Positions 14,492-58,864 of a DNA stretch of 64,000 nucleotides are shown piece by piece. The stretch's first letter is position 1. The number at the start of each line of letters is the position of its first letter. This DNA is from an uncultured Alphaproteobacteria bacterium (GTDB lineage: Bacteria; Pseudomonadota; Alphaproteobacteria; RF32; CAG-239). The stretch lies in NCBI GenBank assembly GCA_944391465.1, contig CALXTS010000002.1:21250-85249 (forward strand), given 5' to 3'. The notes beneath the pieces are model-generated. The model did no database searches. It was not told the origin of the DNA and worked only from the letters and a program-made list of their open reading frames with translations. The position numbers and the translations under genes were made by a program.

Positions 14492-14605
14492 TTTTTCTCC
14501 AAAGTGACGTTATATTATATAGTAAATACAATTAATGCTTGATTTTATAGTTAAAAATCATTTATAAACCTATTGTACAACAAAATTATAAAGAAAGAAC
14601 TAAAG

Positions 14606-25872: not shown

Positions 25873-26616
25873 ATGGAAAAAATTATCTATCAAAACGGAA
25901 ACGAGCATTACATCGTTTTTGAAAACAAGTTGTTTCCCGTACAAAGAAAAACAATGACCAAGATTGGTAATAACGCCATCATCTTGGATGAAAAATTGTA
26001 CCACCTTACTGAGGATAATTCATTAACCTATATTTGCCCGTGCAAAGAAGGAGTTATTGAAATAAACGACACTGTATATGGCCGTCTGCTTCTGATAAAT
26101 GAAAAGCTTTATCAACAAAAAGATGACACCATTAATCTTTTGCCCTCGAAAGAGTACTGTATCGGTAAAACCGCCTTAATGATTCAAAACCGCATTTACT
26201 GCGGCTCTACAGGCTGGTATGCACCTAAATTGTTAAAAATATTTTCTAAAAATGATTTTTACACATTGGTCGGAGCAGTTAACGACCGCGAGTGCAATCT
26301 TTTTATAAAATATAAAAACAAAAACTATTACCACTTTGTCGGAAACAATTGTTCGGTAAAAGGAAAAGTTATAAGTATCCCTCGCTCTCCGCTGACGGAA
26401 GTATGGCTGATGAGTTTTCAAAAACTCAAAAAAATTGGAATTGCCAATGCCGTTAGAGTTGAAAACTCCGGAAAAATAATTTCTTTCCGACATGACCATT
26501 TTTGCACAAGCGAAACAGGTCAAAGAATGAAATATTTTTATGAAACGTTTGAGCTTTCCCCAAAGGAAACCTATGAGTTGAAAGAAGAGAAAAACTCTTT
26601 TGAAAAACTCTTCTAA
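25873..26616 (+). CDS. Hypothetical protein
   Basis: 247-aa ORF with its own promoter-like element and terminator. No motif recognised. Confidence 0.5.
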   Translation: MEKIIYQNGNEHYIVFENKLFPVQRKTMTKIGNNAIILDEKLYHLTEDNSLTYICPCKEGVIEINDTVYGRLLLINEKLYQQKDDTINLLPSKEYCIGKTALMIQNRIYCGSTGWYAPKLLKIFSKNDFYTLVGAVNDRECNLFIKYKNKNYYHFVGNNCSVKGKVISIPRSPLTEVWLMSFQKLKKIGIANAVRVENSGKIISFRHDHFCTSETGQRMKYFYETFELSPKETYELKEEKNSFEKLF

Positions 26617-31653: not shown

Positions 31654-32013
31654 CTACCAACACAAACGCCCAATTTTCATTCCGATAAACAAGAAGATAA
31701 TTCCCAAACCGAGAGAACCTAAAAGATAAAAAAGAGCCTCTGCGATTTTTTGATTATTTAACAAATTTCCAAAATCCAACATATAAGTTGAGAAAGTAGT
31801 AAAACCGCCTAAAATTCCCGTAATTACAAAAGCTCTGATTTCCGGACGTAAATAATCTCGACTTATAAAGAACTGAAAAGCGATTCCAATCAGCAATGCC
31901 CCGATAATATTCACAGACATAACCGCCCAATGTCCGCCGATTTTAACACAAAGCAAATGGCGTAATAACGCTCCGATTCCACCACCCAAAAAAACACTAA
32001 CCAAATTAATCAT
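31654..32013 (-). CDS. crcB: Fluoride ion channel CrcB/FluC
   Basis: 119-aa 4-TM protein with GGGIGALLRH and GGFTTFST motifs. Confidence 0.9.
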   Translation of the reverse strand: MINLVSVFLGGGIGALLRHLLCVKIGGHWAVMSVNIIGALLIGIAFQFFISRDYLRPEIRAFVITGILGGFTTFSTYMLDFGNLLNNQKIAEALFYLLGSLGLGIIFLFIGMKIGRLCW

Positions 32014-33340
32014 CTATATTTTCCTTTAAACCGGCAGATTTCTGTTTTTGTTTTTCTACCCGTAATTTATCAAAATAATCCACTCTTTTTTTAATCTCGC
32101 GTTCAAAACCTCTATCAACCGGAAAATACAATTTAACTCTCCGCATTCCATCCGGAAAATAATTAGCTCCGGAAAAACCGTCTTCACATTCGGGATCATA
32201 TTCATAACCATCACTATAACCAAGCTGTTTCATTAACTTTGTCGGAGCATTAAGAATATTCTTTGGCGGCATTAAAGAACCGGTTCTGCGAGCCAAATCA
32301 CGCGCCGCGTACATTGCTTTATACACGCCTATAGATTTAGGAGCCGTAGCCAAATAAGCCGCCAATTGCATTATAGCCAAATCCCCTTCCGGAGATCCCA
32401 ATCTTTCATAAGTATCCCAACAAGCAATTGCCTGAACAACAGCATTAGGTTCCGCCAAAGAAACATCTTCAACGGCAAATCTTGTCAAACGACGCAATAT
32501 ATATTTAGGATCTTCTCCAGCTTCCAACATTCTTGCCACCCAATACAAAGCAGCATCAACATCAGATCCTCGCAAAGATTTATGAACCGCCGATATCAAA
32601 TTATAATGCCCGTCACGCCCTTTATCATAAATCGGCGCCCGAGAACGAATAATTTGAACAATACTGTCTTTATCAAAAATCTCGTCATTTTGAGCATAAT
32701 TCCAAACGCTTTCCGCCAAATTAAGGATGTAGCGTCCGTCTCCGTCTGCCGTACTTTTCATAAACTCGCGAGCTTCTTTATCAACGGGAAGTTTTTTTCC
32801 GACTTCTTTTTCGGCCCGACATAACAATTCCTCAAAATCATCAGAATTTAACCGATTCAAAACAAAAACCTGACAACGAGACAAAAGCGCGGCATTTAGT
32901 TCAAAAGAAGGATTCTCCGTTGTCGCTCCAACCAAAATAACCGTTCCGTCTTCAACATACGGCAAAAAACCATCTTGTTGAGATTTATTAAACCGATGAA
33001 TTTCATCAACAAACAGTAATGTTCCTTTTCCTTGATTAGCACGGCGTTCTTGCGCATATTGGAAAACTCTTTTCAAATCGGCAACACCGGAAAATACTGC
33101 TGAAATTTGCTCAAAATAAAGATTTGTATTTTCTGCAATCAATCTGGCGATTGTTGTTTTTCCGCACCCCGGAGGTCCCCATAAAATAAACGATGTTATT
33201 TTTTTAGACTTAATCATTCTCCCCAAAGGAGCATTTTCACCGACAATATGATCCTGTCCGACAACTTCAGCCAAAGTCTGCGGACGTAATCTGTCAGCTA
33301 ACGGTCTTTTAATTTGTGTTGAAAATAAAGTCTCTTCCAT
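32006..33340 (-). CDS. rarA: Replication-associated recombination protein A (MgsA/RarA)
   Basis: AAA+ motifs GPPGCGKTT and LFVDEIHRFNK, plus the MgsA C-terminal domain. Confidence 0.9.
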   Translation of the reverse strand: MEETLFSTQIKRPLADRLRPQTLAEVVGQDHIVGENAPLGRMIKSKKITSFILWGPPGCGKTTIARLIAENTNLYFEQISAVFSGVADLKRVFQYAQERRANQGKGTLLFVDEIHRFNKSQQDGFLPYVEDGTVILVGATTENPSFELNAALLSRCQVFVLNRLNSDDFEELLCRAEKEVGKKLPVDKEAREFMKSTADGDGRYILNLAESVWNYAQNDEIFDKDSIVQIIRSRAPIYDKGRDGHYNLISAVHKSLRGSDVDAALYWVARMLEAGEDPKYILRRLTRFAVEDVSLAEPNAVVQAIACWDTYERLGSPEGDLAIMQLAAYLATAPKSIGVYKAMYAARDLARRTGSLMPPKNILNAPTKLMKQLGYSDGYEYDPECEDGFSGANYFPDGMRRVKLYFPVDRGFEREIKKRVDYFDKLRVEKQKQKSAGLKENIDD

Positions 33341-33397: not shown

Positions 33398-35770
33398 TCA
33401 ATTTTTCTTTTCAAAAGGATTATCCAGAGTTGCAACAGGCTCATCAAATGCTTCCTCAGACATCCACCAATCATCACTATTGTTAAAACCTCCATCAGAA
33501 ACATTTTTAACTTGATTTCGCCCGGATTTTTTCCATTTATTGGAAATATCCTCGACTAAGACAGTCGTTTTATCAGTCGCATCCTGAACTTTATCAATAG
33601 CTTCATCATAAGCAATATTCATATATTGACTTAATTCTGTTTCATCGTCAGCACCGGTATTAACATCATAAAAGACATCATCCAACGCCGGAACAACTTC
33701 ATCTTGGGGATTCCGCATCATAACCAAATCTTCATCTAAGAAATAGTTGGCATTAATTAAAGATTTTTCTCTAAATTCCGCATCTTTCAAATAATGTACA
33801 TTTTTAGCTAGTATCGGACGATTATAATACCCTTCGACCAAAACGACTTGATATCCCTTAGTTTCTATTTTTAAATTACGACTTGATTGCAAATCTTGCG
33901 CTAACCGATGATAATAAACAGAATTTGTATAAACCTTGTTTGATTTAAGCAATTGCATCTGCTGATGAACGGGAATTTGCACTGATTTTGTTCCAAAAAC
34001 CGCCAACTTATTAAGCTGCTTACTGAGTTTTTGATTGTTTTCCGCCATCACAATCTTATAGTTTGTAGATGCCACCAAATCTTCCAACATTTCTTTTCCA
34101 TAAACATTCTCAAAATTATAAAGACTGTTGCACAATAAAAGAAAAGACATATTTTTTGACTTAGTTTTAGACAGACTGGATATCAGGCTTCTGATTTTCA
34201 GCATTTGTCCGACATCATCCATAACCACCAACAACGGACAGCCATTTTTCCCTTTTCCGACACTCGGACATTGGCGCAATGCAATTTCAACAAACATCCG
34301 ACTGACAAATTTAGTACTTTTCGTATTAGCTGTCGAATAAACCGTTACCGGCTCTGTTTTTTTAGTCTCGGGATTTCGAATACCTCTAAGCATTGACATA
34401 TTAAAATCCCGCCCGCTTGTTCTTTCTCGAATAACCGCATTTCTAAAAATCATCAATGGTTTCAACAACATCGGAAAAACAATATCTCGTTGTTTAGCAG
34501 ATAAATAAACCAATTGCTGCAAACCGCTGACAACCTCCGCTCCATAATTAAAAAGTTTAGCTTCAAGCATCAAACCTTCAAGCCATTCTCGGCAATCTCC
34601 CTTCCCATTCGGAGCATTTTTATAGGTAAGATAGTTTTTAATAACCCAATCAGAAACCATACTGAGACACAAATCTTTTCCTTGCCACGGCGAAGGAATT
34701 CCTTCCCATGTTCCGATAGGTAAATAATCATCAATCGTTAGCTTTTCTTTTGCAATATCGGCAATAGCCTTTTCTGAATATTGCTGAGGCATCAAGACAT
34801 AATAACTTAACAAGATATCTTTATCATCCTTGCTCATTCGTCCTTTTTCAACAACCGTATTTAAAAAATAATCATTGGCCATTGCTTGAGAAGTTTTACA
34901 AACCATAAATTGTAAAAAACAATTAATAGCTCGATAAGTTAACCACTCCCAATAGTTATCTCGCTCCAAACTTTGCTCATAAGAAGCCAAATAACTGGCA
35001 ATAAAAGCCAAATAACTATCGCGCACCTCTCCTTTGGGCGGTAAATCGCTAATAGACAAAGGATTCCAACGCGGATAAAAATTCCTTTTTTCCGGATTAT
35101 CACACATATCCCAATTAAAATAAAAAACCCGTCCGTTCAGAGAACGATAACCGCTTGTATATTTCGCCAAAACGGCATCATTATCAACCGCCAAAACACT
35201 GGCTTTATCAGATTGCAAAATTGACGGGATTGCCACACTTGAGGTCTTGCCGCTGCCGGCCTCTCCGAAACAAAGGACGGAATCCGGAGCTTTAATACCT
35301 AAAATATGGCTACCGAAACGCCCGATAGCCATCATTCCTGTATTAAGCAAATCCATTTCCGCAACATCTTTTTCTTTGGCAAAATGATGATTTAATATAT
35401 ACCACAAGACAAAAGAATAAGAGCTTTTAATATAAGCAACACCTAAAATCACCAGAGAGACCAGCGGAGCCAATAATGGAATATATAGGCTCGGAATAAA
35501 TCTATGCTTTTCCAAAGCTACCCAAAATATATCCCACCATTTACCATAAGAAGAAAACAAAAAGCCGGGATTTTCCCATATTCTTAAATAAAAAGTTTCT
35601 AATAACAGAAATGTTTTATTGTTAAACCCTTGCTGAACTAATAATGACAAAGACAAAGACAAAAGAGCCGCCACCACAAAACAAACAAGCGACAAAATCA
35701 AAACGCCGACAAACTTTAATATAGCCGTCTTGACACTTTCTTCAGTTTCAATGCTTAATTTAACACCCAT
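33398..35770 (-). CDS. Type IV coupling protein-like ATPase (VirD4/TraG family)
   Basis: N-terminal TM helices. Walker A GEAGSGKTS in the context ...VLCFGEAGSGKTSSVAIPSIL...SVLAVDND...RVFYFNW...RWNPLS. Walker-B-like LLVVMDDVGQM. LLLCNSLYNFENVYG block. Acidic C-terminal tail. Confidence 0.8.
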   Translation of the reverse strand: MGVKLSIETEESVKTAILKFVGVLILSLVCFVVAALLSLSLSLLVQQGFNNKTFLLLETFYLRIWENPGFLFSSYGKWWDIFWVALEKHRFIPSLYIPLLAPLVSLVILGVAYIKSSYSFVLWYILNHHFAKEKDVAEMDLLNTGMMAIGRFGSHILGIKAPDSVLCFGEAGSGKTSSVAIPSILQSDKASVLAVDNDAVLAKYTSGYRSLNGRVFYFNWDMCDNPEKRNFYPRWNPLSISDLPPKGEVRDSYLAFIASYLASYEQSLERDNYWEWLTYRAINCFLQFMVCKTSQAMANDYFLNTVVEKGRMSKDDKDILLSYYVLMPQQYSEKAIADIAKEKLTIDDYLPIGTWEGIPSPWQGKDLCLSMVSDWVIKNYLTYKNAPNGKGDCREWLEGLMLEAKLFNYGAEVVSGLQQLVYLSAKQRDIVFPMLLKPLMIFRNAVIRERTSGRDFNMSMLRGIRNPETKKTEPVTVYSTANTKSTKFVSRMFVEIALRQCPSVGKGKNGCPLLVVMDDVGQMLKIRSLISSLSKTKSKNMSFLLLCNSLYNFENVYGKEMLEDLVASTNYKIVMAENNQKLSKQLNKLAVFGTKSVQIPVHQQMQLLKSNKVYTNSVYYHRLAQDLQSSRNLKIETKGYQVVLVEGYYNRPILAKNVHYLKDAEFREKSLINANYFLDEDLVMMRNPQDEVVPALDDVFYDVNTGADDETELSQYMNIAYDEAIDKVQDATDKTTVLVEDISNKWKKSGRNQVKNVSDGGFNNSDDWWMSEEAFDEPVATLDNPFEKKN

Positions 35771-35781
35771 AGTCCTTGTTT

Positions 35782-36939
35782 TTAATCCCGTCCTCTACTC
35801 TGTTCCCTGATAGCCATTATCATATCTCGAGAAGGCTTTTCTTGCTGAGGCTCTTCTCTTTGAACCTCATTTTGCTGAGTTTCATTTTGAAGTTCTTTTT
35901 TCTTTTCGGCAAACTCTTCTCTTTTTCTTTCCTTAAAGGCCTCGATTGTTTTTCGCAATTCTTGATTATGGTTTTTAACTTCAAGTTCATGTTCCGATTT
36001 TATATTTTTCAAAGCCTCTTCATCTTTAACGGGTGGACGCTCGGCATGGCGAAATACTTTTTTTCCAACCTTAAGCAATGTTTCCACACTGATTTCGCCA
36101 CCATTGATTAAATCCAAAACACCAAATTCCCGTCCATCATCCAAAAAGATTTTTGAAAGATCCAGAGCCTGACGTTTCCCTTTATCTTTTTTCTTAGGAG
36201 CTAAAATTTTAGCCAACTCATCTTTTCCGGGCACTCTTCCCAAAGCCTGAGCAATTTGCTCGGGAGTAATAATACACTCGCTTAAATCCAACTCCATAAT
36301 ATTTACACCGGTAAAATTACATCCGGTAAAATCAACTCCGCGTAAACTAACCTTAGATAAATCAATTTTTGTTAAATCCAAAAGAGTTAGATTCAATTTA
36401 GTTAAATTAAGTTTATGCGGATAATATTTTGCCAAATATTCAATTAAAGACTGAAGTTCCTCTAAAGCAATATCATCAATATCAATTCCGAGAAGGATTG
36501 CATCTTCCAAATCAGCATCGGTAAACCGCACGCCGCGCATTTTTGCTCCGGTAAAATTAGTACGAAGCAAAACAGAACCGGATAAAACCGCACCGGTCAA
36601 ATCTGCACCTTCCAAATTCGCATCTGTCAAATTAGCACCGGAAAAATCCACACCTTTAAGATTTGCTCCGGAAAAATCAACCCCCGTCAAATTAGCGACC
36701 GAAAAATTTGCTCCTTCTAAATTTTCTTGCGCAAATTTGCCGTTTTCCAGATTTTTACCGATAAAATCAAAATCAGAACGAACCACATCATTTTCAGCTG
36801 CAGTAATTTTTGAAACCGCATTCCAAGAATAACTGCCTTCTTCGGGAAAAGAAGGAGTTTCTCGATTAGTATATTGCTTCAGCTTGGATTTCCATGCATT
36901 TACAGATTTATCTTTTGTATCATTAACGCCCATTCCCAA
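35782..36939 (-). CDS. Pentapeptide-repeat protein with charged K/E/R-rich C-terminal extension
   Basis: Two blocks of A(D/N)LxG-type pentapeptides (ANFSVANLTGVDFSGANLKGVDFSGANLTDANLEGADLTGA...). The stop lies 11 nt upstream of the T4CP start. Confidence 0.85.
   Translation of the reverse strand: MGMGVNDTKDKSVNAWKSKLKQYTNRETPSFPEEGSYSWNAVSKITAAENDVVRSDFDFIGKNLENGKFAQENLEGANFSVANLTGVDFSGANLKGVDFSGANLTDANLEGADLTGAVLSGSVLLRTNFTGAKMRGVRFTDADLEDAILLGIDIDDIALEELQSLIEYLAKYYPHKLNLTKLNLTLLDLTKIDLSKVSLRGVDFTGCNFTGVNIMELDLSECIITPEQIAQALGRVPGKDELAKILAPKKKDKGKRQALDLSKIFLDDGREFGVLDLINGGEISVETLLKVGKKVFRHAERPPVKDEEALKNIKSEHELEVKNHNQELRKTIEAFKERKREEFAEKKKELQNETQQNEVQREEPQQEKPSRDMIMAIREQSRGRD
36274..36768 (-). 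repeat. In-frame degenerate 15-nt periodic repeats encoding the pentapeptide blocks
   Basis: Repeated ...GCNCCGGNAAAATC... units are visible on the + strand. They correspond to about residues 58-150 and 176-222. Confidence 0.6.
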
Positions 36940-36965
36940 AATCCGATAAAATTCCAGTTTCTGCC

Positions 36966-36994
36966 ATTATGACATTTTTTAAATATTTTTACAA
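36966..36994 (-). promoter_or_regulatory. Sigma70-like promoter for the pentapeptide/T4CP pair
   Basis: On the minus strand: TTGTAA, 17-nt spacer, CATAAT, about 27 nt upstream of the ATG at 36939. Confidence 0.35.
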
Positions 36995-37005
36995 ACAATT
37001 TATCA

Positions 37006-38796
37006 CTAACGTAATAAGCATTCTGTTTTAGCAGCTCTTAATTCATTACAGATATTTCTGAAACCGCCGTTTACGGAACTAACCAACAAGCGATACCAAA
37101 TTTTACCATCAACATGAGAGCGCTCAATTTGAGGCATATAGCTTTTAAGTCCTGAAAAACGAGAAGTCAAATCTTGCCATGTTTCTGTTGCATTTTGTTT
37201 TTTCTCAAAAGAACCGAGCTGCATAATTTTATATTTATCAGCTTCCGGAGCATAGGGTTCAAACATACTTTCGGTTTTATTTAAATTAACGGCAGGTACG
37301 GCTTTTTTTGAAGAAGATTTTCCGTCAATAAGTCTTTCCAGCCAATTTTCACCTTTTGCCCAATAATTTTTTTCATTATCAATCGGCTTACTTTGTTTTA
37401 ATTTCTGTTCAGCTGCAGCCAACATCCGAACAACATCCTCATTAAAACCAACCTTCAAAACCTGTTCAATATCTTTTAACGGAGCTTTCAACAATCTTTT
37501 TGTATAAGGAGAAAATCCGGCTTCAAAATACAACGTCCGTAAAGCAACAGCTCTTTCAGCCTTAATTTGAGACAACGTATATTCTTCTTGCATCAAGGCG
37601 ATTCGCAAGTTCAATAACTCTATTTTCTTCTCACTATTCAAACGAGATTTTCTTTCAAGCTCATTAATTTTTTTCTTAAGCGTTTTAATTTTATCTGAAG
37701 TCAATTTATAATCAATATCCGCCAACCGAACCAATTTATAGTTAACTTTAATTTGCGCTAAAATAGCATTTCCTAAAACATCAAAGGCCTGTTCTTGTAA
37801 TTTATTTTTCTGTTGGACATCATTTTCATTATTATAAGCACTAACGGCATCGATTAAATCATTGGCATTTTGCAAAGCTCTTTCTTGCAGTTGGGTACTA
37901 TACAAACGATGATCAATATCCAAACCGTTAATATCCAAACGTTCAACGTCTTCATACATCAGATTTGTACTTTGCTTAACCTCATCAAAAGAATATGTTT
38001 TGACCAACTCTTTGGCAACCGCAAACTCCGTTCGATTATTCACGGCAGATTCTTGAAAAATTTCTACGCTGTAATTTTTATCAAAATCTTCAAGTTCATA
38101 AAAATGGCGTCCGGCGAAATCGACTTTACTTGTTAACATATTTGTCAATTCGCCGTATTCAGCTAAATTCATTGCTAATTTTTGCTGCAGTTCATTTAAA
38201 TTTAGCAATGCAACTTCCAAACCCTTTTTATATTCCAAATCATCACGAGTCAATTTACCGGTTCTTTCCAGTTTAGCGTTTATCTCCGCAAGTTTCTTTT
38301 GTTCTTGCTTTGCTAGACGATTAATTTCTTTAATTTTCCTACTGGCATACCAAGCATCTTGATGAGTTCTTATTGCGGCAAGAGTCAAATGTTGTGCCGC
38401 TCTCGTATAAAACAAGTTGTCAACAAAGCCTTTTTTGTTATTAAGATTTGCCGTTGCATACAAGGTTGCATACTCCAGAGCATTTGAAACTTCATACAAA
38501 GGTGTCGTATTATCAAATTTTATATTCATAATATTCTGAAGAACGTTGCGCGGTTTTTGATTAGGGTCAAAAATTTTTTTATTTAGATTCGCACTTGCGT
38601 TATCAACATTATATTTAGCCGCTCTTGCCATAGAAGTATAAACATCTACTTTACCCTTAACAGCTTCCGGCTCTGCACGAAAAACCAACTCATCTTCTTT
38701 AACCGCAGGAGTTTTATCAGCATCATCGAGCGCACAGCCGCATAAGAACAAACAGGTCAAAAACAGTGCATTTCCGGAAAATTTCACATACTTCAT
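37006..38796 (-). CDS. Lipoprotein with TolC/OMF-like helical body and C-terminal SPOR domain
   Basis: Lipobox LFLCGC after MKYVKFSGNALFLT. OMF-like start (VDVYTSMARAAKYNVDNASANL) and long heptad-rich segments. C-terminal SPOR pattern YKIMQLGSF...A...W..L...GKIWYRLLV...CNELRAAKTECLL. Confidence 0.6.
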   Translation of the reverse strand: MKYVKFSGNALFLTCLFLCGCALDDADKTPAVKEDELVFRAEPEAVKGKVDVYTSMARAAKYNVDNASANLNKKIFDPNQKPRNVLQNIMNIKFDNTTPLYEVSNALEYATLYATANLNNKKGFVDNLFYTRAAQHLTLAAIRTHQDAWYASRKIKEINRLAKQEQKKLAEINAKLERTGKLTRDDLEYKKGLEVALLNLNELQQKLAMNLAEYGELTNMLTSKVDFAGRHFYELEDFDKNYSVEIFQESAVNNRTEFAVAKELVKTYSFDEVKQSTNLMYEDVERLDINGLDIDHRLYSTQLQERALQNANDLIDAVSAYNNENDVQQKNKLQEQAFDVLGNAILAQIKVNYKLVRLADIDYKLTSDKIKTLKKKINELERKSRLNSEKKIELLNLRIALMQEEYTLSQIKAERAVALRTLYFEAGFSPYTKRLLKAPLKDIEQVLKVGFNEDVVRMLAAAEQKLKQSKPIDNEKNYWAKGENWLERLIDGKSSSKKAVPAVNLNKTESMFEPYAPEADKYKIMQLGSFEKKQNATETWQDLTSRFSGLKSYMPQIERSHVDGKIWYRLLVSSVNGGFRNICNELRAAKTECLLR

Positions 38797-38810
38797 GGGC
38801 AACTCTTCCA

Positions 38811-38865
38811 ATGTAACAATATGTAACAAGAATTTAAAAGCTTTTTACCAAATTTCTTGTTATAT
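38811..38865. promoter_or_regulatory. Tandem plus inverted 10-mer repeats (operator-like) upstream of the lipoprotein gene
   Basis: ATGTAACAAT-ATGTAACAAG in tandem (38811-38830). The inverted copy CTTGTTATAT (38856-38865) matches 9 of 10 positions. Confidence 0.3.
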
Positions 38866-38907
38866 GTAAACTAATAAATTTATGAACTTTATATAAAGGT
38901 AAAACTC

Positions 38908-39927
38908 ATGAACGAAACGATTAAGGTTGCCGTTATCGGCGCCGGCATGATGGGAAAGAACCATCTGAAAACCTATAAAACATTAAACGGCGTTGAGCTT
39001 GTCGGTGTTTACGACATTTTTCCCGAAAGCTGTCAAAAAGCCGCCGAAATGTTTGGGATTAAAGCATTTTCATCTATGGAAGAAGTAGCCGCCAACGTTG
39101 ATGCCGTCAGTGTTGTAACAACGTCAATCACGCATTGTGAAGTTGGCGAATTTTTCTTAAATAAAGGCATCCACTGCTTAATGGAAAAACCCTTAGCAAC
39201 CACGGAAGCCGAATGCCAAAGACTCATAAGCGCTGCAAAACGCAATAATGTAACCTTACTCGTTGGGCATATTGAGCAATTCAATCCGGCCGTAGAACAA
39301 ATGCACAAGATTCTTTCAGACACATCTAAAATTTGTTCTTTAACGGCTCAACGTATGTCTGCCGCAAGCGGCCGCATTACGGACGTTGATGTTTCTATGG
39401 ACTTGATGATTCACGATATTGAAGTTATCCAATCTTTGGTAAAATCAAAAGTATCTAATATTCAGGCAGCTGCAGTCAAAACTCCTCTCAGCCCGAATGG
39501 TAAAGATTATATTACAGCGGTATTGGAATTTGAAAATGGCGTAACTGCCAACATTACAGCTAGCCGCATAACCCAAGCCCGTGTCAGAACCTTATCAGTC
39601 ACGACGGATACCAACTATATTGATATGGACTTTATCAACCAAAGCATCAATGTTCACACTCAAGGACGCATGCCTTACGTCAATCAAGAAGAAATTCCGG
39701 AATGGATGCACTATGGCTTGAAAGGAAGTGTCGAACAGTTGTTTATCCCGACAAATCAACCCTTGCAGGCAGAACTGACACACTTTATCAACTGCGTTAA
39801 AGGCAAAGAAACACCTCGCATTACCGGAGAAAACGCTCTTGACGCATTGCGTGTTATTTGGAAAATACAAGAAAAACTTGGTTTTTTTGCCCAAGACAAT
39901 AATGCACTCAAAATTGCCGCGGAATAA
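38908..39927 (+). CDS. Gfo/Idh/MocA family NAD(P)-dependent oxidoreductase
   Basis: Rossmann motif VAVIGAGMMGKNH. EKP motif (LMEKPLA). 339 aa. Confidence 0.85.
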   Translation: MNETIKVAVIGAGMMGKNHLKTYKTLNGVELVGVYDIFPESCQKAAEMFGIKAFSSMEEVAANVDAVSVVTTSITHCEVGEFFLNKGIHCLMEKPLATTEAECQRLISAAKRNNVTLLVGHIEQFNPAVEQMHKILSDTSKICSLTAQRMSAASGRITDVDVSMDLMIHDIEVIQSLVKSKVSNIQAAAVKTPLSPNGKDYITAVLEFENGVTANITASRITQARVRTLSVTTDTNYIDMDFINQSINVHTQGRMPYVNQEEIPEWMHYGLKGSVEQLFIPTNQPLQAELTHFINCVKGKETPRITGENALDALRVIWKIQEKLGFFAQDNNALKIAAE

Positions 39928-42377: not shown

Positions 42378-42408
42378 AAAAGAGTTCCCGAGGGGACTCT
42401 TTTGTTTT
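42378..42408 (+). terminator. Hairpin terminator after hslO
   Basis: AGAGT-CCC / GGG-ACTCT stem followed by TTTTGTTTT. Confidence 0.55.
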
Positions 42409-42431
42409 ATACAGAAAATGGAAATAAGAAG

Positions 42432-43055
42432 ATGAATACGCTAAAAAGAATTTTACCTGCCTTTGTTCTGACGCTTGCTCTGTGCGGCTGTGCAACAATA
42501 TTCGGCACCAGTGATGAAGAAGTCAAAAAATACGATGAACCCCGTTTTACAACGGAAGAGCCAATAAAACTCAAAGTTAATAAAATTGACGTAAAATCAG
42601 AGTTTACCCCATCTTTCACACGACCGAATGTTGAGCATCTTTTCCCGATTTCAATAGAAAAAACAGCCGAAAATTGGGGTCACGACCGTCTGGAAGCTGC
42701 TGATTTTTCCAGCGACAAGATTGCCGAAGTCATCATCAGAGATGCCAGCGTAACTGAAAAAAATGAAAAGAATGCAGATTTCTTCAACAAAGACCGCGTA
42801 AAATATCGAGCAACCTTAAACGTCGTTGTAAAAGTTATTGATCCGACCAACCTTTCAAGAGCAGAAACAGAGGTAGAAGCATGGAGAGAACTTATTATTC
42901 CGGCAGATACCAGCATTTCTGAAAAAGAGCAGTACTGGAACGGAATGGTAACCAAATTGTTTAATGACTTCAACGCCAAAATGACAGCAAATATCTACCA
43001 ATACTTAAACATGCATGTCGTTGACGGAGAATCAAAACCGACATATCTTAATTAA
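42432..43055 (+). CDS. Lipoprotein, hypothetical
   Basis: MNTLKRILPAFVLTLALCGCA lipobox. An alternative TTG start at 42402 is possible. Confidence 0.6.
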   Translation: MNTLKRILPAFVLTLALCGCATIFGTSDEEVKKYDEPRFTTEEPIKLKVNKIDVKSEFTPSFTRPNVEHLFPISIEKTAENWGHDRLEAADFSSDKIAEVIIRDASVTEKNEKNADFFNKDRVKYRATLNVVVKVIDPTNLSRAETEVEAWRELIIPADTSISEKEQYWNGMVTKLFNDFNAKMTANIYQYLNMHVVDGESKPTYLN

Positions 43056-44349: not shown

Positions 44350-46113
44350 TTGATAGGGCATAAAAAGATGAAAAAGAACATACAAAGTCTCATATTGTTA
44401 CTCCTTATTTTTTTGACAAATACTGCTTTTGCTGCAGTTGTTCCGGATTATGCCCAAAACAAATACCAAAACAAAGAATTGAGTCGCGCAGAAAAAAAAT
44501 GCATTGAAGAGGGTTACAATGTTACCTACGCGAGCTGCGGAAAAATGACTGCACCGACAGAACGTTGCCCGCATCACGACAACTACTATAAAAGTTGTTC
44601 TCAAGAACAATGGTGCAAAAATAATAACTATCGCTTTACAGAAGCCGAATGCACACGACCGCTTTATCCGATAAAAATGTGTGATAACGGATACCACCTA
44701 TACCGCCAATGCAAAGAAAATATTATAAAGGCCTGTGAAGAAGAAGGTTTCACATCCGAAGAAAAGTGCAAACTTACTGAAAAAAGATGCCCTTATTCAA
44801 AAAATTATGGAATATGTTGCGATTCTTGTCCGCAATTTTCACATGAATTAAACAATATTCCCGTAGGATACATTGCATTCGGAGACACCTGCACAACCTG
44901 CGATGATATCGTTAAAACCAATGTCATTCCGGCGCCTTGCGAAGGTTACATCAGTTGCCCTTATGGTCCTGAAAATCCTAATACCCCCTCTTGCCAACAA
45001 GCAGAAAAAATACTTTATAATGCCTGCAAAACTTCCAACACATACTGTATAGAAAACGGATATGCTTCAGATATTTGTAAAGATGTTGAAGACTTTGAAG
45101 TTTGCCCAGAAAATGATGGCTATCTGCGTTGTAAAACAAATTGCTTAAAAGTTGCAAAAAAAGCCTTTCCCAAAGCAGATATCTTTTCCAAAGATATAAC
45201 CAATCCTGAAATCAATTTACAAAATGACGAGATTCGGAGTCTGATTGGCTTAAAACATACAGACTGCCGAATTGAAAATCGTCCGACAATTACATTAAAT
45301 ATTAATAGCAAGAGCTATGAGATATATCAGTCGATTTTCAAACGTAAAATCAGCAACATTAACTTCAAAATCAATTTTGAAGAACCATTACAACTTCCTG
45401 CCGACGGAATATTTGAAAATGTTAAAATTGACTTCAGCGGCAATCTGCCGGAGTGTCCGTTAAGCTCAAAAATTACCGAGATTAAAGGAACTGTCAGCAT
45501 GAATAATGCTCCTCAACTTTGTCTCGGATTAAAAATTACCAATGAAGCCAAGTTTATCTCAGACGGAGGAATAACTGGAAACATTGAACTGGGAGATGAC
45601 GCAACACTAGGGCTTAAAGGAGACTTAAACGGCTCTTTGCAAACCGGAAACTATTCTCAAGTCCTGATAAAAGGCAGTCTAACATTTAAAGATGAATTTA
45701 ATAGTCAAGCAGATGACATGAGTATTGTTTTTGGATGCAACAGCAAAAACAAAATAGAAAAAGGTATCATTGCCGACACATCATCAATTTACCTCAAATC
45801 CTGGGCAAATCTTGATACACCAAGCATCAGTCTGCATTCAACCAGCGACAATCCCAACTTGCCGAATAGTTTAGCATCAATTCACATGTACAAATGGAGT
45901 AAAATTTTTACAAGCTACGGAAGTGGTGACAATGCCGTAATCTATCCGATTAACGAAAATGACAATGCTACCGGATGTGATGATAAATATTACCAACATC
46001 TTGGTTCGGCTGTCCAACAAAACGAACAAACCATGGTTATAGAACCGGCCAATTTGATTGAAGACAAATGGCAATGCCGTGAAAGAACCAATAAACAACT
46101 ATCGTGCAATTAA
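44350..46113 (+). CDS. Secreted cysteine-rich modular protein, hypothetical
   Basis: The TTG start lies 6 nt after AAAGGAG (alternative ATG at 44368). Signal peptide ...LILLLLIFLTNTAFA. About 25 Cys occur between residues 51 and 265. The C-terminal half is beta-rich. Confidence 0.6.
   Translation: MIGHKKMKKNIQSLILLLLIFLTNTAFAAVVPDYAQNKYQNKELSRAEKKCIEEGYNVTYASCGKMTAPTERCPHHDNYYKSCSQEQWCKNNNYRFTEAECTRPLYPIKMCDNGYHLYRQCKENIIKACEEEGFTSEEKCKLTEKRCPYSKNYGICCDSCPQFSHELNNIPVGYIAFGDTCTTCDDIVKTNVIPAPCEGYISCPYGPENPNTPSCQQAEKILYNACKTSNTYCIENGYASDICKDVEDFEVCPENDGYLRCKTNCLKVAKKAFPKADIFSKDITNPEINLQNDEIRSLIGLKHTDCRIENRPTITLNINSKSYEIYQSIFKRKISNINFKINFEEPLQLPADGIFENVKIDFSGNLPECPLSSKITEIKGTVSMNNAPQLCLGLKITNEAKFISDGGITGNIELGDDATLGLKGDLNGSLQTGNYSQVLIKGSLTFKDEFNSQADDMSIVFGCNSKNKIEKGIIADTSSIYLKSWANLDTPSISLHSTSDNPNLPNSLASIHMYKWSKIFTSYGSGDNAVIYPINENDNATGCDDKYYQHLGSAVQQNEQTMVIEPANLIEDKWQCRERTNKQLSCN
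44500..45144 (+). repeat. Protein-level repeats: 4-5 copies of a ~33-aa four-Cys module
   Basis: Cys at 51/63/73/83 and at 89/101/111/121 have identical 12/10/10 spacing. Related sets occur at 129/140/147/156 and 233/243/252/261. Recurring C-x-[EN]-x-G-[YF] and C-P...Y..C. Confidence 0.5.
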
Positions 46114-46634
46114 GGATTAACGTTAGGAGAATAGATTGTTTGAGGGTTTGCAGGATTACTCATCACATTAATATCCTGCTCTGGATAAGCCTGAATATCA
46201 TAAATCATTCCGTTTCCTTCAACCAAAGTATTTTGAAAATCCTTTCCCAGAGCTTGTGCCGCCTGAGGAGAATTGGGTAACACCCCCTGTCCTACAGGAA
46301 TTCCCTGAGGCCCTGAACCCAAATTATTAATAGAAGAAGGTGCAGGAGAAGATGTCGAAACCGAAGCAGCATGATTTTGAGCAGGAGGAATAATTTCCGG
46401 AGGTTGATCTGAAGTTATAGGATTACCCAAAGGATTTTCAGCATTTTCAGGCTGTTCCAACAAAACTGAATCTATTGTTCCGTCAGCCTTTTTAGCTGCC
46501 CCGTAAACCATTGTCGGTGCAGAAGGATTACTCTCTTCTTCAATAATTGTATTTTCGCTTTGAGCATATGAATTAGAATTCATAGCACACAAAACCCACA
46601 GCAAAACCGCAAATGTTCGCATTCCATCTCCCAT
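46110..46634 (-). CDS. Secreted Pro/Gln/Asn-rich hypothetical protein
   Basis: AAGGAG lies 7 nt upstream. Signal peptide ...FAVLLWVLCAMNSNSYAQ. Low-complexity P-rich body. Confidence 0.55.
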   Translation of the reverse strand: MGDGMRTFAVLLWVLCAMNSNSYAQSENTIIEEESNPSAPTMVYGAAKKADGTIDSVLLEQPENAENPLGNPITSDQPPEIIPPAQNHAASVSTSSPAPSSINNLGSGPQGIPVGQGVLPNSPQAAQALGKDFQNTLVEGNGMIYDIQAYPEQDINVMSNPANPQTIYSPNVNP

Positions 46635-46962: not shown

Positions 46963-47826
46963 ATGGAAAATCAAATTTTATTATTACAAGAAAGTTGTCT
47001 TCAAATATATAATGAAACTATTGCTCCAGAACTTTCTGAAAAAGATAAAAAAGTTCTTGCCGAAATTTTTATGGAAAATCCCCATAACTTATATCAATAT
47101 CATCAACCCATCCCTATTGCAACTTGGCAAGAAGAAGGAGCCGATGTCGAACGCCTGAAATATCTGACCCTAAAATTGTGCAATGGCACGAATAACGTCA
47201 ACAAAGAAATAAAAAACTTTTTGTTGCAAAATAATTATATAAAAGAAAATAACGGAAAATTGGAACTAACCGACAAACTAACTTTTCAAACGCCAGATAA
47301 TAACAGTATTGGCGGATGCACCAAACAAGATACAAGCGGCAATATACTTATCATAATCAACGGTGAATTTATGAAACGCTCAAATAGCTCATTGGCTATA
47401 GCCCTTGGACACGAAATCTGCCATTGTATGATAAACAAAAAACTGGGAAAATGCGGAACTTCTAGTGAAGTTGAGGCTCTATGTGACATAATTGGCCTCA
47501 GCGCAGCCAAAGGAGCCGGTTATGATATCAGCCACATACCCACACAAAACAATATCGACTATAACAAACAAAAACAAATGGAACAACTCCAGCCATACAA
47601 AAAATATCTGGAATCTCAAGGTATTAATATTGAAAAAAAGGTTCAAGAAACTCTAGACTTTTATCAACCTCAAAAACTAAATAGAATTGCTGAAATCATC
47701 AATCAAAAAATTCCGCTTTCTGAAAATAAAATTGAAAGAAAACTTGATCAGTTAAAACAAAAGATTTCAAAACCACAAAAACAAAATTTAACTAATTTAT
47801 TTAAAGCAAGACAACATGAAATCTAA
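46963..47826 (+). CDS. Hypothetical protein with HExxH metalloprotease-like motif
   Basis: LAIALGHEICHCM...SSEVEALCD gives HExxH plus a downstream Glu. No signal peptide. K/Q-rich C-terminus. Confidence 0.55.
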   Translation: MENQILLLQESCLQIYNETIAPELSEKDKKVLAEIFMENPHNLYQYHQPIPIATWQEEGADVERLKYLTLKLCNGTNNVNKEIKNFLLQNNYIKENNGKLELTDKLTFQTPDNNSIGGCTKQDTSGNILIIINGEFMKRSNSSLAIALGHEICHCMINKKLGKCGTSSEVEALCDIIGLSAAKGAGYDISHIPTQNNIDYNKQKQMEQLQPYKKYLESQGINIEKKVQETLDFYQPQKLNRIAEIINQKIPLSENKIERKLDQLKQKISKPQKQNLTNLFKARQHEI

Positions 47827-57982: not shown

Positions 57983-58864
57983 ATGATATCTGCAAAATTA
58001 CAAAAAAAAATAATCTGTTTAAGTACCGTGCTTGCGCTCTGTGGTTGTGAATACTTAAAAACGCACACGGTAAAAGATTTTATGATTAATCCGATGGAGG
58101 CTTTTAACTACAAACCCACGGAAGAACAATTAGCGATTAACACCCCAGAATTGAGGGCGCCGAGGTCTATTGTAGTTTGCCGTTCGCATCAATGCGCTCC
58201 GTCAAAACTTTCAATGTCTAAAGAATATATTTACAACAGCTTACTTCAGCTTTTTGAAAACAACAATTATCAAAAAGCCTTAATTTGTCAGGCAGATTCT
58301 AATACACACACCTGCCTTGAAAACTATATAACAATGGGTATTACTGCAGGTATAACCCCAACCAATGCGTATATTGACCATGTAAAAATAACCGATGTCA
58401 TTGTCGGAAAAAACATCAGTACAATTAATCTTATTCTCAACTACAATGTAACCTTTGGTGGCCAAACTGCAGAATGCACACCGGCTCAAAGCATTGTCTT
58501 TGCACGCAACGTCAACCATGTCTTATTAGAAGATAGCGGATATGTTTGTAAAATGACGGCAATCGGACAAACAAATATCAAAACCGTTTTTGCAATTGAC
58601 TATATTGACTTAGATTATGGTTATATCGGCGGCTACTTTTCTGTAGGTTTTTCTGGACCGGCATACGGCGGAGGTAGTGGTTACATGCTTTTACGCCTCC
58701 CCAAAAACGCCTATCCGCTTTCACCTAAATTGAAAGCACCCAAGATTAACAAACAAAACCGACAGAACCAAAACCGAAGCTACACTGCACCCAGTATTCT
58801 GGACAGCTCTGCCGAAGAAGGTTCAGCCTCGAGTGCTGTACAGGTTTTCCCATTACAAAAATAA
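57983..58864 (+). CDS. Lipoprotein, hypothetical
   Basis: Lipobox LSTVLALCGC. 293 aa. No family recognised. Confidence 0.55.
   Translation: MISAKLQKKIICLSTVLALCGCEYLKTHTVKDFMINPMEAFNYKPTEEQLAINTPELRAPRSIVVCRSHQCAPSKLSMSKEYIYNSLLQLFENNNYQKALICQADSNTHTCLENYITMGITAGITPTNAYIDHVKITDVIVGKNISTINLILNYNVTFGGQTAECTPAQSIVFARNVNHVLLEDSGYVCKMTAIGQTNIKTVFAIDYIDLDYGYIGGYFSVGFSGPAYGGGSGYMLLRLPKNAYPLSPKLKAPKINKQNRQNQNRSYTAPSILDSSAEEGSASSAVQVFPLQK

Follow-up and report, generated by a model that had tools for sequence, protein, structure and literature searches.

Genes and sequence features of the locus

Three minus-strand ORFs, encoding a coupling ATPase (T4CP), a pentapeptide-repeat protein (PRP) and a lipoprotein (LIPO), were found as a sequence-only reading had described them in the window, that is, the whole 64-kb stretch of DNA that was analysed. 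The features of the locus are as follows.

32006..33340, minus strand: rarA/mgsA, directly downstream of T4CP (Pfam identification by proxy)
33398..35770, minus strand: T4CP, a divergent VirD4/TraG/TrwB-type coupling ATPase of 790 aa (Pfam, AF2, Foldseek, hydropathy)
33413..33472, minus strand: short conserved motif of the T4CP C-terminus, DWW..E.aF....NPF (aa 767-786), closing the acidic tail (orthologue alignment)
34214..34234, minus strand: Walker B of T4CP, LLVVMDD, aa 513-519 (orthologue alignment)
35243..35266, minus strand: Walker A of T4CP, GEAGSGKT, aa 169-176 (alignment of 25 diverse orthologues)
35782..36933, minus strand (ORF to 36939): PRP, pentapeptide-repeat protein (PF00805, E 1.8e-35)
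36966..36994, minus strand: TTGTAA-17-CATAAT, a TG-extended sigma70-like promoter for the PRP-T4CP operon (consensus scan and orthologue comparison)
37006..38796, minus strand (ORF to 38829): LIPO, a lipoprotein of OMF(TolC) origin that carries a SPOR domain C-terminally (AF2, Foldseek, Pfam, hhalign)
38812..38872, minus strand: conserved non-coding block upstream of LIPO, with a promoter-like TTTACA-N17-TGGTAAAAA followed by an operator-like tandem repeat, TTGTTACA-TA-TTGTTACA
38908..39927, plus strand: Gfo/Idh/MocA oxidoreductase (GFO), the divergent upstream flank

First, the ORF at 33398-35770 (-) is a genuine, intact and very divergent T4CP of the VirD4/TraG/TrwB fold. Three Pfam T4CP models, T4SS-DNA_transf (PF02534; 51 bits, E 1.4e-13, cut-off 20.1), TraG-D_C (PF12696; 30 bits) and TrwB_AAD_bind (PF10412; 26.5 bits), were matched above their cut-offs, and more than 120 full-length homologues were obtained. 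The T4CP layout claimed earlier for the 790-aa ORF was borne out by these matches together with the TM segments, motifs and acidic tail. Two hydrophobic segments (aa 11-49 and 90-122 by hydropathy) constitute the N-terminal TM pair, and P68, Y75 and W78 are conserved in the loop joining them; the nucleotide-binding domain carries an all-alpha insertion of approximately 200 aa (aa ~248-450), and the tail has a net charge of -18 across aa 661-790. The motifs quoted in the sequence-only reading are all present, including PRWNPL (aa 233-238), LLVVMDDVG (aa 513-521) and NSLYNFENVYG (aa 548-558). Among 25 diverse orthologues, G169, G172, G174 and K175 of Walker A are invariant and T176 is conserved in at least 90%, while V516 and D519 of Walker B are invariant and D518 is conserved in at least 90%. 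In the gut clade the acidic pair of Walker B reads [DE]D, as against the canonical DE of remoter relatives. The AF2 model (pLDDT 79.7) gave Cagbeta (8dol, E 3e-15), TrwB (1e9r, 2e-7) and DotL (6sz9, 1e-5) as the best Foldseek matches. No PDB sequence was matched in a profile search, and the NCBIfam TraG/VirD4 equivalog models scored only 18-57 bits against cut-offs of 586-681; together with the change of the Walker B pair from DE to [DE]D, this divergence is consistent with a new function. At the extreme C-terminus, W768, W769, F775, N784, P785 and F786 are invariant in the 25 diverse orthologues, and the DWW...NPF motif is present in 111 of the 116 close T4CP members and in some distant ones, e.g. 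P0258 and P0269. The pLDDT of this region is low, as expected of a disordered linear motif, and the motif is a candidate for a partner docking site.

Second, the ATG at 36933, which is also the choice of public gene callers, is probably the real start of PRP, giving a protein of 383 aa. The repeats form one block at aa ~56-150 and another at aa ~175-225, with a net charge of -13 over the repeat region; a conserved helix, IEELQxLIEYLAKYYPHKLNL, joins the two. They are followed by a non-repeat domain, also conserved, and by a coiled tail of mixed charge with a terminal RGRD. The C-terminal domain of approximately 160 aa is restricted to the PRP family, and an alignment of 28 sequences contains 48 invariant columns, non-repeat regions included. 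No hydrophobic segment was detected in PRP by hydropathy. These data show that PRP is cytoplasmic and acidic, a beta-helix protein whose non-repeat domains are specific to its family. Sequence matches to DNA-mimic PRPs were observed, and the scores of all Qnr/MfpA equivalog models were far under their cut-offs; PipB and PipB2 were also among the matches.

Third, the ATG at 38796 is probably the real start of LIPO (596 aa), and the description of this protein as a TolC-like/SPOR lipoprotein is supported in the sense of a weak TolC-like fold with a SPOR domain. The AF2 model (pLDDT 83.5) contains long TolC-like helical hairpins, and Foldseek matched it to TolC, CusC, OprM and MtrE (E 9e-5 to 1e-1) and to the SPOR domain of RlpA; a Pfam SPOR match was found in 20 of 29 orthologues. 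The lipobox Cys21 is invariant among orthologues, and C583 and C593 of the SPOR part are invariant in set A2 and conserved in at least 90% of set A3. No Pfam OEP match was obtained for the window LIPO; nevertheless, hhalign showed it to be homologous from end to end (probability 99.85%, E 6e-31) to an OEP-positive OMF-SPOR protein encoded at L092, the locus of an environmental relative. In the gut-clade LIPO, the region of the first beta-hairpin has been shortened by approximately 35 aa, and no barrel strands are predicted.

The spacings between these genes also agree with the earlier description. The PRP stop lies 11 nt ahead of the T4CP ATG in the window, and LIPO ends 66 nt upstream of PRP, or 72 nt by the probable PRP start. 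Downstream, the 57-nt spacer between T4CP and rarA has its own extended -10-like element, with a promoter-like site at 33401-33373. Upstream of LIPO, near-identical copies of the non-coding block were found in 66 of 69 orthologous GFO-LIPO spacers, although the flanking proteins are only 35-60% identical; its operator-like 18-mer is matched exactly at 38812-38829 and, in another lineage, recurs in the ftsZ-lpxC interval.

Conservation and inheritance of the PRP-T4CP operon

A relative is encoded in 160 genome stretches, whose labels all name uncultured Alphaproteobacteria or Proteobacteria from gut, rumen or faeces, apart from two mislabelled as Lactobacillus. Across the 80 species loci retained from these 160 matches, all from uncultured gut Alphaproteobacteria, the order GFO<- | LIPO-PRP-T4CP-RarA is syntenic; in presence counts made on 84 loci, T4CP was found in 84, PRP in 82, RarA in 80, LIPO in 77 and GFO in 75. 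The neighbours are co-conserved across related loci, and the earlier interpretation is partly supported, with the refinement that the conserved functional unit is PRP-T4CP and not the triplet. The pair is regarded as the true unit because of its own conserved promoter, a median spacer of 5 nt among orthologous loci (in which overlapping genes are common), and its recurrence without LIPO in other lineages. The promoter-like element attributed to PRP was not significant alone, the consensus scan being at chance level, but an equivalent, TTGT(C/A)A-N17-TAT(G/T)AT, has been kept in nearly all orthologous LIPO-PRP spacers. PRP is present in each close locus for which upstream DNA was at hand. LIPO adjoins the pair in 77 of approximately 81 close loci, is missing in four (L025, L057, L082 and L084), and lies beside the pair in only one distant lineage (L092). 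Thus, LIPO is a frequent, non-obligate neighbour, and a weaker partner than PRP for T4CP.

Beyond the gut clade, at least six further housekeeping contexts in remoter lineages contain the PRP-T4CP pair, including Obg|L32, LspA|AddAB, FTHFS, PepN and UvrA; its neighbourhoods number at least seven, unrelated to one another, and none has T4SS channel or relaxase genes within 10 kb. Remoter T4CP relatives are also orphans, such as a protein labelled 'Rickettsiales bacterium' near RuvB and another beside UvrD. T4CP relatives without a recognisable PRP were observed at L095, L098, L111, L151 and L089, and the partnership is non-universal in the wider T4CP clade. At L092, GFO is followed on the opposite strand by co-directional genes with short spacers encoding OMF-SPOR, HlyD, HlyD, M50/HlyD, PRP and T4CP; L092 and L093 are the only places, among the window and the compared loci, in which an HlyD or M50 homologue was found. 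GFO is a synteny marker common to the gut-clade loci and this distant locus.

The flanks named in the sequence-only reading, RarA-CrcB on one side and the oxidoreductase on the other, were confirmed. All ORFs of at least 150 aa in the 64-kb window, except those overlapping longer ORFs, were scanned against Pfam or NCBIfam; eight were without a family, and the gene content of the window is housekeeping only. No T4SS component (including VirB, Trb and Dot-Icm genes), relaxase, integrase or transposase was found among the scanned ORFs, as had been claimed, and the claim that nothing marks a mobile island holds in the window, since flanking repeats are absent from it as well. No composition shift was detected at the locus, and PADLOC gave no matches. 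Likewise, T4SS genes, relaxases, integrases and flanking repeats were absent within +/-10 kb of the related loci with Pfam-annotated genes, which represent approximately 12 independent genomic contexts. Together, the labels of the relatives, the synteny counts, the lack of a composition shift or repeats, and the housekeeping character of the window show that PRP->T4CP is a vertically inherited core-chromosome operon.

The evolutionary rates of these proteins were also compared. After removal of the housekeeping background, the partial correlations of pairwise distances were 0.46 for T4CP-LIPO and 0.32 for T4CP-PRP, against -0.42 to 0.21 for the controls. The raw correlation was highest for T4CP-LIPO (r 0.88) and reached 0.83 for T4CP-AsmA; this mirror-tree signal is modest, and proteins that evolve fast show higher correlations for trivial reasons. 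PRP is better conserved than T4CP, with a mean p-distance of 0.39 compared with 0.59.

Proposed role of T4CP and PRP

Herein, with somewhat less than even confidence, we propose that T4CP works as a motor, inherited vertically and gated by PRP as its dedicated partner, and that it was probably co-opted from conjugative T4CPs to a lineage-wide housekeeping role independent of a canonical co-encoded T4SS. In the contexts examined, T4CP is never beside secretion-channel genes, and it may therefore serve outside classical type IV secretion. T4CP would form a hexameric NTPase motor in the inner membrane. PRP would be its dedicated partner, a physical binding that we infer from gene order alone, and might dock on the all-alpha domain and/or the acidic-aromatic C-terminal tail (DWW...NPF), thereby gating substrate access or ATPase activity; the DNA-like surface of PRP could fill the nucleic-acid/substrate path of the motor. 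LIPO might be a leftover of an ancestral neighbouring cassette, OMF-HlyD-HlyD-M50/HlyD, still present in L092, and may act with PRP-T4CP at the envelope or septum, as suggested by synteny and correlated evolutionary rates. Against this proposal, we know of no outer-membrane route in Gram-negative bacteria for a T4CP-only translocase. No description of a PRP-T4CP pairing was found in the literature searched.

The proposed gating would parallel that of CagZ on Cagbeta in H. pylori, TraM on TraD in the F plasmid, and the adaptors of DotL (DotM/N/IcmSW/LvgA) in Legionella, in which a small partner on the all-alpha domain or C-tail controls the activity or substrate choice of the T4CP. The genes for CagZ, TraM and DotM/DotN are adjacent to, or clustered with, those for their T4CPs, and Cagbeta-CagZ (8dol), the best structural match of the present T4CP, offers a precedent for an adjacently encoded regulator. 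A further precedent comes from Rickettsia, where the listed interactors of the T4CP RvhD4 include a pentapeptide-repeat protein, cREM-4 (PMC11077975). However, these complexes are encoded inside T4SS gene clusters, unlike PRP-T4CP, and the partner here is an unrelated 383-aa pentapeptide-repeat beta-helix, whose interaction with T4CP is presumptive. With VirD4/TraG/TrwB T4CPs in general, the present protein shares the domain order (a pair of TM helices at the N-terminus, then a RecA-like NBD that bears Walker A/B, the all-alpha insertion and an acidic C-tail), scores above the cut-offs for PF02534, PF10412 and PF12696, and structural matches to TrwB, Cagbeta and DotL. It differs in its core-chromosomal position, its vertical inheritance and the absence of T4SS and relaxase genes from its neighbourhood, and in its all-alpha domain of approximately twice the usual size, the [DE]D of Walker B, the conserved DWW...NPF and the PRP partner.

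It is possible, although on the unlikely side, that T4CP instead serves as the usual receptor for substrates of a chromosomal T4SS scattered elsewhere in the genome, as with rvh of Rickettsiales, delivering them to a VirB-like channel encoded remotely, and that PRP is an adaptor/chaperone or an effector recognised via its charged tail (...RGRD). The rvhD4 gene adjoins rvhB8-B11, and the gene for the pentapeptide-repeat protein cREM-4 is not known to be adjacent to it. PRPs are known T3SS effectors, such as PipB/PipB2, which are among the matches of the window PRP. The complete architecture and intact motifs of T4CP agree with this reading, as does the conserved P68/Y75/W78 loop between the TM helices, which is expected if it touches a channel component, and a related orphan T4CP was found in a MAG labelled Rickettsiales. 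RvhD4 is likewise an alphaproteobacterial, chromosomal, vertically inherited T4CP of a scattered system, and cREM-4 is among its listed interactors in Rickettsia (PMC11077975); however, cREM-4 is approximately 950 aa long and its internal repeat is small. Moreover, T4SS genes are absent within 10 kb in approximately 12 contexts while the PRP link is kept save in some relatives, the better conservation of PRP than of T4CP is unusual for an effector, and the canonical VirD4/TraG models match T4CP very weakly.

The gene row of L092, the full-length homology of LIPO to its OMF, the top T4CP-LIPO distance correlation and the adjacency of LIPO in most loci might point to a reduced tripartite T1SS-like envelope-spanning exporter, which would be energised at the inner membrane by T4CP, with the OMF-SPOR LIPO as its outer-membrane/peptidoglycan part and PRP as cargo or plug, the HlyD and M50/HlyD adaptor genes having been lost or moved. 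This reading is improbable, because the OMF-HlyD-M50 context is seen in one lineage only, the gut-clade LIPO has a shortened first hairpin region and no predicted barrel strands, other distant PRP-T4CP loci are without OMF or HlyD nearby, HlyD/M50 homologues are absent from the window and from the compared loci except L092/L093, and PRP-T4CP is under its own promoter. LIPO resembles TolC/OprM/CusC (PF02321) in its helical hairpins and RlpA/FtsN/DamX (PF05036) in its C-terminal SPOR fold, but it differs from the former in lacking a Pfam OEP match and predicted barrel strands and in the partial deletion of its first barrel hairpin. To our knowledge, no T4CP operates with a TolC-type duct, and no OMF-SPOR fusion has been characterised.

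Very improbable is an FtsK-like function, in which T4CP would be a membrane/septal DNA translocase tied to replication/recombination through RarA, with PRP as a DNA-mimic regulator and the SPOR lipoprotein for septal targeting. DNA mimicry occurs among PRPs, as in MfpA and Qnr, and SPOR domains attach to septal peptidoglycan; in E. coli, ftsK is located directly upstream of lolA-rarA. PRP resembles MfpA, Qnr and AlbG/McbG in its right-handed quadrilateral beta-helix repeats and net negative charge, although a conserved helix divides its repeats into two blocks and it carries the additional C-terminal domain. The gene rarA follows T4CP in 80 of 84 loci, merely 0-25 nt past its stop in some species, DNA repair genes (UvrD, AddAB, RuvB, UvrA, UvrC, MutL, RecX) lie near T4CP in 7 of approximately 12 contexts, and the operator-like 18-mer found ahead of LIPO is shared with an ftsZ-lpxC interval of another lineage. 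However, neither an FtsK_SpoIIIE match nor a gamma-domain was found in T4CP by the Pfam scan, the rarA adjacency is limited to the gut clade, and the repair-gene enrichment is statistically unconvincing (estimated at approximately 0.36 expected by chance versus 0.58 observed in 12 contexts).

Finally, chromosomal orphan T4CPs are usually ICE/IME relics. Integrase, repeats, composition anomaly and PADLOC matches are all absent here, however, and the species loci examined have full-length intact orthologues with invariant catalytic motifs at one and the same core position. A decaying remnant of a conjugative or mobilisable element that had integrated, or an ATPase of anti-phage defence, is effectively refuted by these conservation data.

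A conserved gene pair without a local secretion system

In the present study, a pentapeptide-repeat protein (PRP) and a membrane-anchored VirD4/TraG/TrwB-type coupling ATPase (T4CP) were shown to be encoded in a conserved, vertically inherited operon with no local type IV secretion system (T4SS). The pair and its surroundings in the window are arranged as follows.

Features of the region
31654-32013, minus strand: crcB, flank
32006-33340, minus strand: rarA, same flank as crcB
33398-35770, minus strand: T4CP, 790 aa, one of three co-directional genes
35782-36933, minus strand: PRP, 383 aa
37006-38796, minus strand: lipoprotein, 596 aa
38812-38872, minus strand: conserved non-coding block of about 60 nt between the lipoprotein and oxidoreductase genes, near-invariant in 66 of 69 species
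38908-39927, plus strand: Gfo/Idh/MocA oxidoreductase, divergent flank of the three-gene region

The gene at 33398-35770 encodes a real and intact but strongly divergent T4CP, and several lines of evidence lead to this assignment. First, three Pfam families were matched above their cut-offs (PF02534, 51 bits against 20.1; TraG-D_C, PF12696, 30 against 22; TrwB, PF10412, 26.5 against 20.5), whereas the NCBIfam scores were far under the cut-off (VirD4, 21.7 against 681; IncP TraG, 56.6 against 674; TraG, 18.1 against 586). Second, the N-terminal anchor comprises two hydrophobic segments by hydropathy (aa 11-49 and 90-122) with a short loop between them, corresponding to helices 13-47 and 97-129 in an AlphaFold2 model based on 25 orthologues (pLDDT 79.7). 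Third, the Walker A motif GxxGxGK(T/S) (aa 169-176) is invariant among the 25 orthologues, an acidic pair is retained at Walker B (the gut clade has hhhh[DE]D, with D519 invariant, and distant relatives the canonical DE), and an invariant DWW..E.aF....NPF closes the acidic tail. Fourth, the model shows a RecA-like nucleotide-binding domain with an inserted all-alpha domain in a TrwB-like fold, and Foldseek placed Cagbeta (8dol, E 3e-15) ahead of TrwB (2e-7) and DotL (1e-5), with HerA and VirB4 behind. The full coupling-protein layout described in the sequence-only reading was thus borne out. The T4CP differs from FtsK/SpoIIIE proteins, as no FtsK_SpoIIIE motor or gamma-domain match was obtained with Pfam at E<=0.01, and membership of that family was rejected. 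No PDB sequence matched the T4CP family profile and a PDB profile search with the lipoprotein family was likewise unhelpful; relatives of both proteins in the PDB were recognised by fold comparison only.

The PRP matches PF00805 with an E-value of 1.8e-35 (120.5 bits, cut-off 20.2) over four stretches of tandem A(D/N)LXX repeats, and PRPs of the PDB are among its sequence matches. In the repeat search, its gene showed an internal periodicity of 30 nt. The protein has no hydrophobic segment, and its acidic repeat region is arranged as two blocks separated by a conserved helix and followed by a family-specific C-terminal half, for which a search for outside relatives returned fragments of the same family only. 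The scores against the equivalogs of gyrase-protecting PRPs are all far below the cut-off (for example Qnr, 46 against 240; MfpA, 47 against 360), setting the protein apart from them. In two species (L071 8017-12358 and L072 4054-8241), both proteins are enlarged, with 572-613 aa for the PRP and 819-842 aa for the T4CP, and additional genes lie between T4CP and rarA at both loci.

Inheritance and genomic contexts

More than 120 full-length T4CP homologues of approximately 780 aa were found. Among GTDB species-representative genomes, a relative is encoded in 160 stretches, of which the best 80 loci were retained; their sources are uncultured Alphaproteobacteria of gut, rumen or faeces, with labels including "Proteobacteria bacterium CAG:495", "Azospirillum sp." UMGS bins and Candidatus Scatocola. 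All members of the lineage carrying the pair are uncultured, and a 1.95-Mb contig is known for it. Over 84 loci, one gene order is kept, in which Hsp33-RecX-TruA and the divergent oxidoreductase precede a row of lipoprotein-PRP-T4CP-RarA-(CrcB)-RluC-AsmA; T4CP is present in 84, PRP in 82 (the other two being contigs that end at T4CP), RarA in 80, the lipoprotein in 77 and the oxidoreductase in 75. Two metagenome-assembled genomes with this alphaproteobacterial block are titled "Lactobacillus sp." and "Lactobacillaceae bacterium" (L080, L082), probably through a binning or labelling error.

The conserved unit is the PRP-T4CP pair. The spacer within the pair has a median of 5 nt, with frequent overlap, compared with a median of 69 nt between the lipoprotein and PRP genes; the pair has a separate promoter-like element; the lipoprotein gene is not beside the pair in four close loci (L025, L057, L082 and L084); and the pair recurs in other contexts. 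Consequently, of the three-gene grouping proposed earlier, the pair stands as a core module, but the lipoprotein does not stand as an equal partner.

The recurrence was established by searching 1.84 billion representative proteins exhaustively with a profile, which gave 159 proteins at E<1e-30, with full-length relatives extending down to approximately 400 bits, and by a metagenome scan with a profile of 11 sequences.

Other contexts of the pair
P0266 (relative from the profile search): Obg, divergent from PRP-T4CP, which is followed by L32
P0272: LspA, divergent from PRP-T4CP, with AddAB next
P0260 and P0264 (about 1000 aa): FTHFS, divergent from PRP-T4CP
Many gut-metagenome loci: PRP-T4CP in additional contexts

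More distant orphan T4CPs include a "Rickettsiales bacterium" protein near RuvB and another adjoining UvrD, and one sub-clade has multi-pass membrane proteins in place of the PRP. At the loci of a sister sub-clade of orphan T4CPs without a PRP (L095 7833-9955; L098 563-2548; L111 8793-9959 and 12231-13297; L151 8827-9942 and 12134-13237), one or two membrane-like proteins of 173-509 aa with hydrophobic N-termini and a conserved W-rich "NWHFDI..EHW" are encoded upstream, none of the scanned neighbours matched a Pfam family, and L111 and L151 also carry two small conserved ORFs downstream.

Within 10 kb on either side of the T4CP relatives, no T4SS or relaxase gene was found in approximately 12 independent contexts, and among the window ORFs of at least 150 aa (leaving out those overlapping longer ORFs), no T4SS, relaxase or integrase family was matched, each ORF being housekeeping or of no recognised family. 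These results agree with the earlier claims that no other T4SS gene lies nearby and that nothing marks the region as a mobile island. A remnant of an integrative element (ICE or IME) was rejected, since there is no integrase or relaxase in the window scan, no flanking repeat in the region (the repeat search otherwise gave chance matches only), no patchy distribution and a base composition that is flat along the window. An anti-phage defence island was rejected because PADLOC gave no match for the T4CP, the PRP or the lipoprotein.

The lipoprotein and the conserved spacers

The lipoprotein carries an invariant lipobox cysteine in the orthologue alignment. Its AlphaFold2 model (pLDDT 83.5) consists of long helical hairpins, with no strands predicted in aa 50-480 of the monomer, and has weak Foldseek matches to TolC, CusC, OprM and MtrE (E 9e-5 to 1e-1, TM 0.3-0.46). 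The outer-membrane-factor family PF02321 was not matched by the window protein and was weakly matched by one of 29 orthologues. A distant orthologue in the environmental locus L092 reaches 88 bits for this family (cut-off 22), and hhalign aligned it with the lipoprotein family from end to end (probability 99.85%, E 6e-31, 557 columns), approximately 35 aa of the first barrel-hairpin region being absent from the lipoprotein. The TolC-like character noticed in the sequence is therefore supported by remote homology and weak structural matches. The putative C-terminal SPOR domain (PF05036) scores 15.6 bits in the window protein against a cut-off of 21, is matched in 20 of 29 orthologues (best 1.3e-5), and its fold resembles the RlpA SPOR domain 6i09 (TMt 0.60).

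In L092 (GCA_002410125.1, DHQH01000110.1, 2307-13069), six co-directional genes encode the OMF-SPOR protein, two HlyD proteins, an M50/HlyD protein, a PRP and a T4CP of 1022 aa, adjoined by the divergent oxidoreductase gene. One HlyD has an N-terminal cytoplasmic domain, and the M50/HlyD protein is a Peptidase_M50 fused to an HlyD-like region. The TolC, HlyD and M50/HlyD cassette appears uncharacterised, and a literature search on such cassettes returned no description of the module. No HlyD or M50 homologue of L092 was found in the window or the other loci examined; together with the end-to-end homology, this suggests that the lipoprotein is what survives of an ancestral tripartite-type cassette next to the pair. 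The evolutionary distances of T4CP and lipoprotein are correlated (r 0.88, partial r 0.46; partial r for T4CP and PRP, 0.32; control pairs, -0.42 to 0.21), and this correlated divergence, together with the synteny, is suggestive, but not proof, of a functional tie between the lipoprotein and the pair.

Scanning the region for consensus promoters and terminators gave 28 sites against 24.4 expected, which is chance level, and single promoter-like sites are credible only through conservation across species. The promoter-like element earlier assigned to the PRP gene has such conservation: a sigma70-like TTGT(C/A)A-N17-TAT(G/T)AT (36994-36966 in the window) is kept in the lipoprotein-PRP spacer of nearly every species. 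The block between the oxidoreductase and the lipoprotein (GGTTTACATATA..TTTGGTAAAAAGCTTTTAAATTCTTGTTACATATTGTTACA) is conserved although the flanking proteins are merely 35-60% identical (spacers of loci L001-L084), and an "MLHIVT" N-terminal extension of the lipoprotein is a spurious ORF-finder translation of part of it. Its sequence suggests that the block comprises a promoter, TTTACA-N17-TGGTAAAAA, and then a tandem operator, TTGTTACA-N2-TTGTTACA (N2 = TA). A CtrA-like TTAA-N7-TTAC lies inside it, and this and a LexA-like direct repeat were considered as indications of the candidate binder. A more distant lineage, which likewise carries the pair, has the 18-mer TTGTTACATATTGTTACA of the block between ftsZ and lpxC (L114 ~12831, L116 ~6211, L140 ~14581); this suggests a common regulator and possibly a connection with the cell cycle or division.

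Two elements are conserved in the T4CP-rarA spacer, an extended -10-like element and, just upstream of the rarA start codon, a CGAATCG motif; in several species the spacer is shortened to 0-25 nt. RarA/MgsA (32006-33340, minus strand, and orthologues) is unusually conserved, with 82-95% identity (mostly 85-92%, mean p-distance 0.12), compared with approximately 65% for RluC, 65% for TruA and 50% for AsmA in the same species.

Proposed role and other genes of the window

By definition, a coupling protein serves a channel for secretion or conjugation. Herein, we tentatively favour, at somewhat less than even confidence, the co-option of the T4CP away from canonical type IV secretion, for three reasons: the link to the PRP is kept through rearrangements while a link to a T4SS was never seen within 10 kb, the T4CP is very distant from canonical models, and in the gut clade the Walker B motif has changed from DE to [DE]D. 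A more far-reaching form, about which we are rather doubtful, is that the whole clade, in gut Alphaproteobacteria and their relatives, lies outside type IV secretion as a housekeeping inner-membrane motor paired with and gated by a DNA-mimic-like PRP, in genomes with no T4SS, and that the substrate of the motor, whether DNA or protein, is handled at the envelope or septum; the linkage to RarA, the SPOR lipoprotein and the operator common to the ftsZ-lpxC region hint at this location. In the main alternative, the T4CP would be the receptor of a scattered, remotely encoded T4SS, and the PRP would serve it as an adaptor or be an effector. The listed interactors of the Rickettsia T4CP RvhD4 include a pentapeptide-repeat protein (PMC11077975), but the lack of T4SS genes within 10 kb in about 12 contexts makes this reading less likely. 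A reduced TolC-linked exporter is improbable; still more so is a DNA role of the FtsK type with ties to RarA and SPOR, given that the T4CP has no FtsK_SpoIIIE Pfam match. The earlier interpretation as a stand-alone, remote-channel or co-opted coupling protein was thus supported in part and narrowed to the PRP-T4CP core module.

Under co-option, the T4CP would be a putative hexameric inner-membrane NTPase, and the PRP may bind its enlarged all-alpha domain, its acidic-aromatic C-tail or both. By analogy with CagZ, which gates Cagbeta, the top structural match of the window T4CP, the PRP might gate substrate access or ATPase activity; TraM acts on TraD, and adaptors on DotL, in a like manner. 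Since PRPs of the MfpA/Qnr type are DNA mimics, the acidic beta-helix of the PRP could conceivably fill the nucleic-acid path of the T4CP.

A literature search (RF32 with T4SS, orphan T4CPs, PRP with T4CP) found no description of the PRP-T4CP module, and the literature joining T4CP and PRP concerned DotG only. If a T4CP clade is a fixed part of the core genome throughout a gut-associated order, this would imply either a scattered T4SS or a recruited motor. In the first case, abundant gut commensals that are so far uncultured would have a T4SS that is conserved but scattered, along with a new class of adaptor or effector. In the second, a T4CP motor would have been taken over for a housekeeping task outside secretion; we know of no description of such a case, and it would be a new functional class if the genomes prove to be without a T4SS. 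Most pentapeptide-repeat proteins have no known function, and with either outcome they would gain a defined molecular partner, while the pair offers a simple two-gene system for studies of T4CP-motor gating.

Elsewhere in the window, an [FeFe]-hydrogenase large subunit with ferredoxin-like domains (14573-16075, plus strand) is consistent with an anaerobic, fermentative gut alphaproteobacterium. Two tandem paralogues and an adjacent hybrid histidine kinase/response regulator (10567-11868, 11874-13154 and 13229-14491, all minus strand) may form a degenerate c-di-GMP module; the paralogues match the EAL domain only weakly, at 26-30 bits where the cut-off is 31, and the genes lie in the part of the window with the lowest GC (0.33). 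Eight window ORFs of 174-587 aa match no Pfam or NCBIfam family, the largest products having 587 and 529 aa.

Window ORFs of no family
1564-2436, minus strand
25873-26616, plus strand
42402-43055, plus strand; product lipoprotein-like (LALCGC)
44350-46113, plus strand
46110-46634, minus strand
46963-47826, plus strand
57983-58864, plus strand
58984-60573, minus strand
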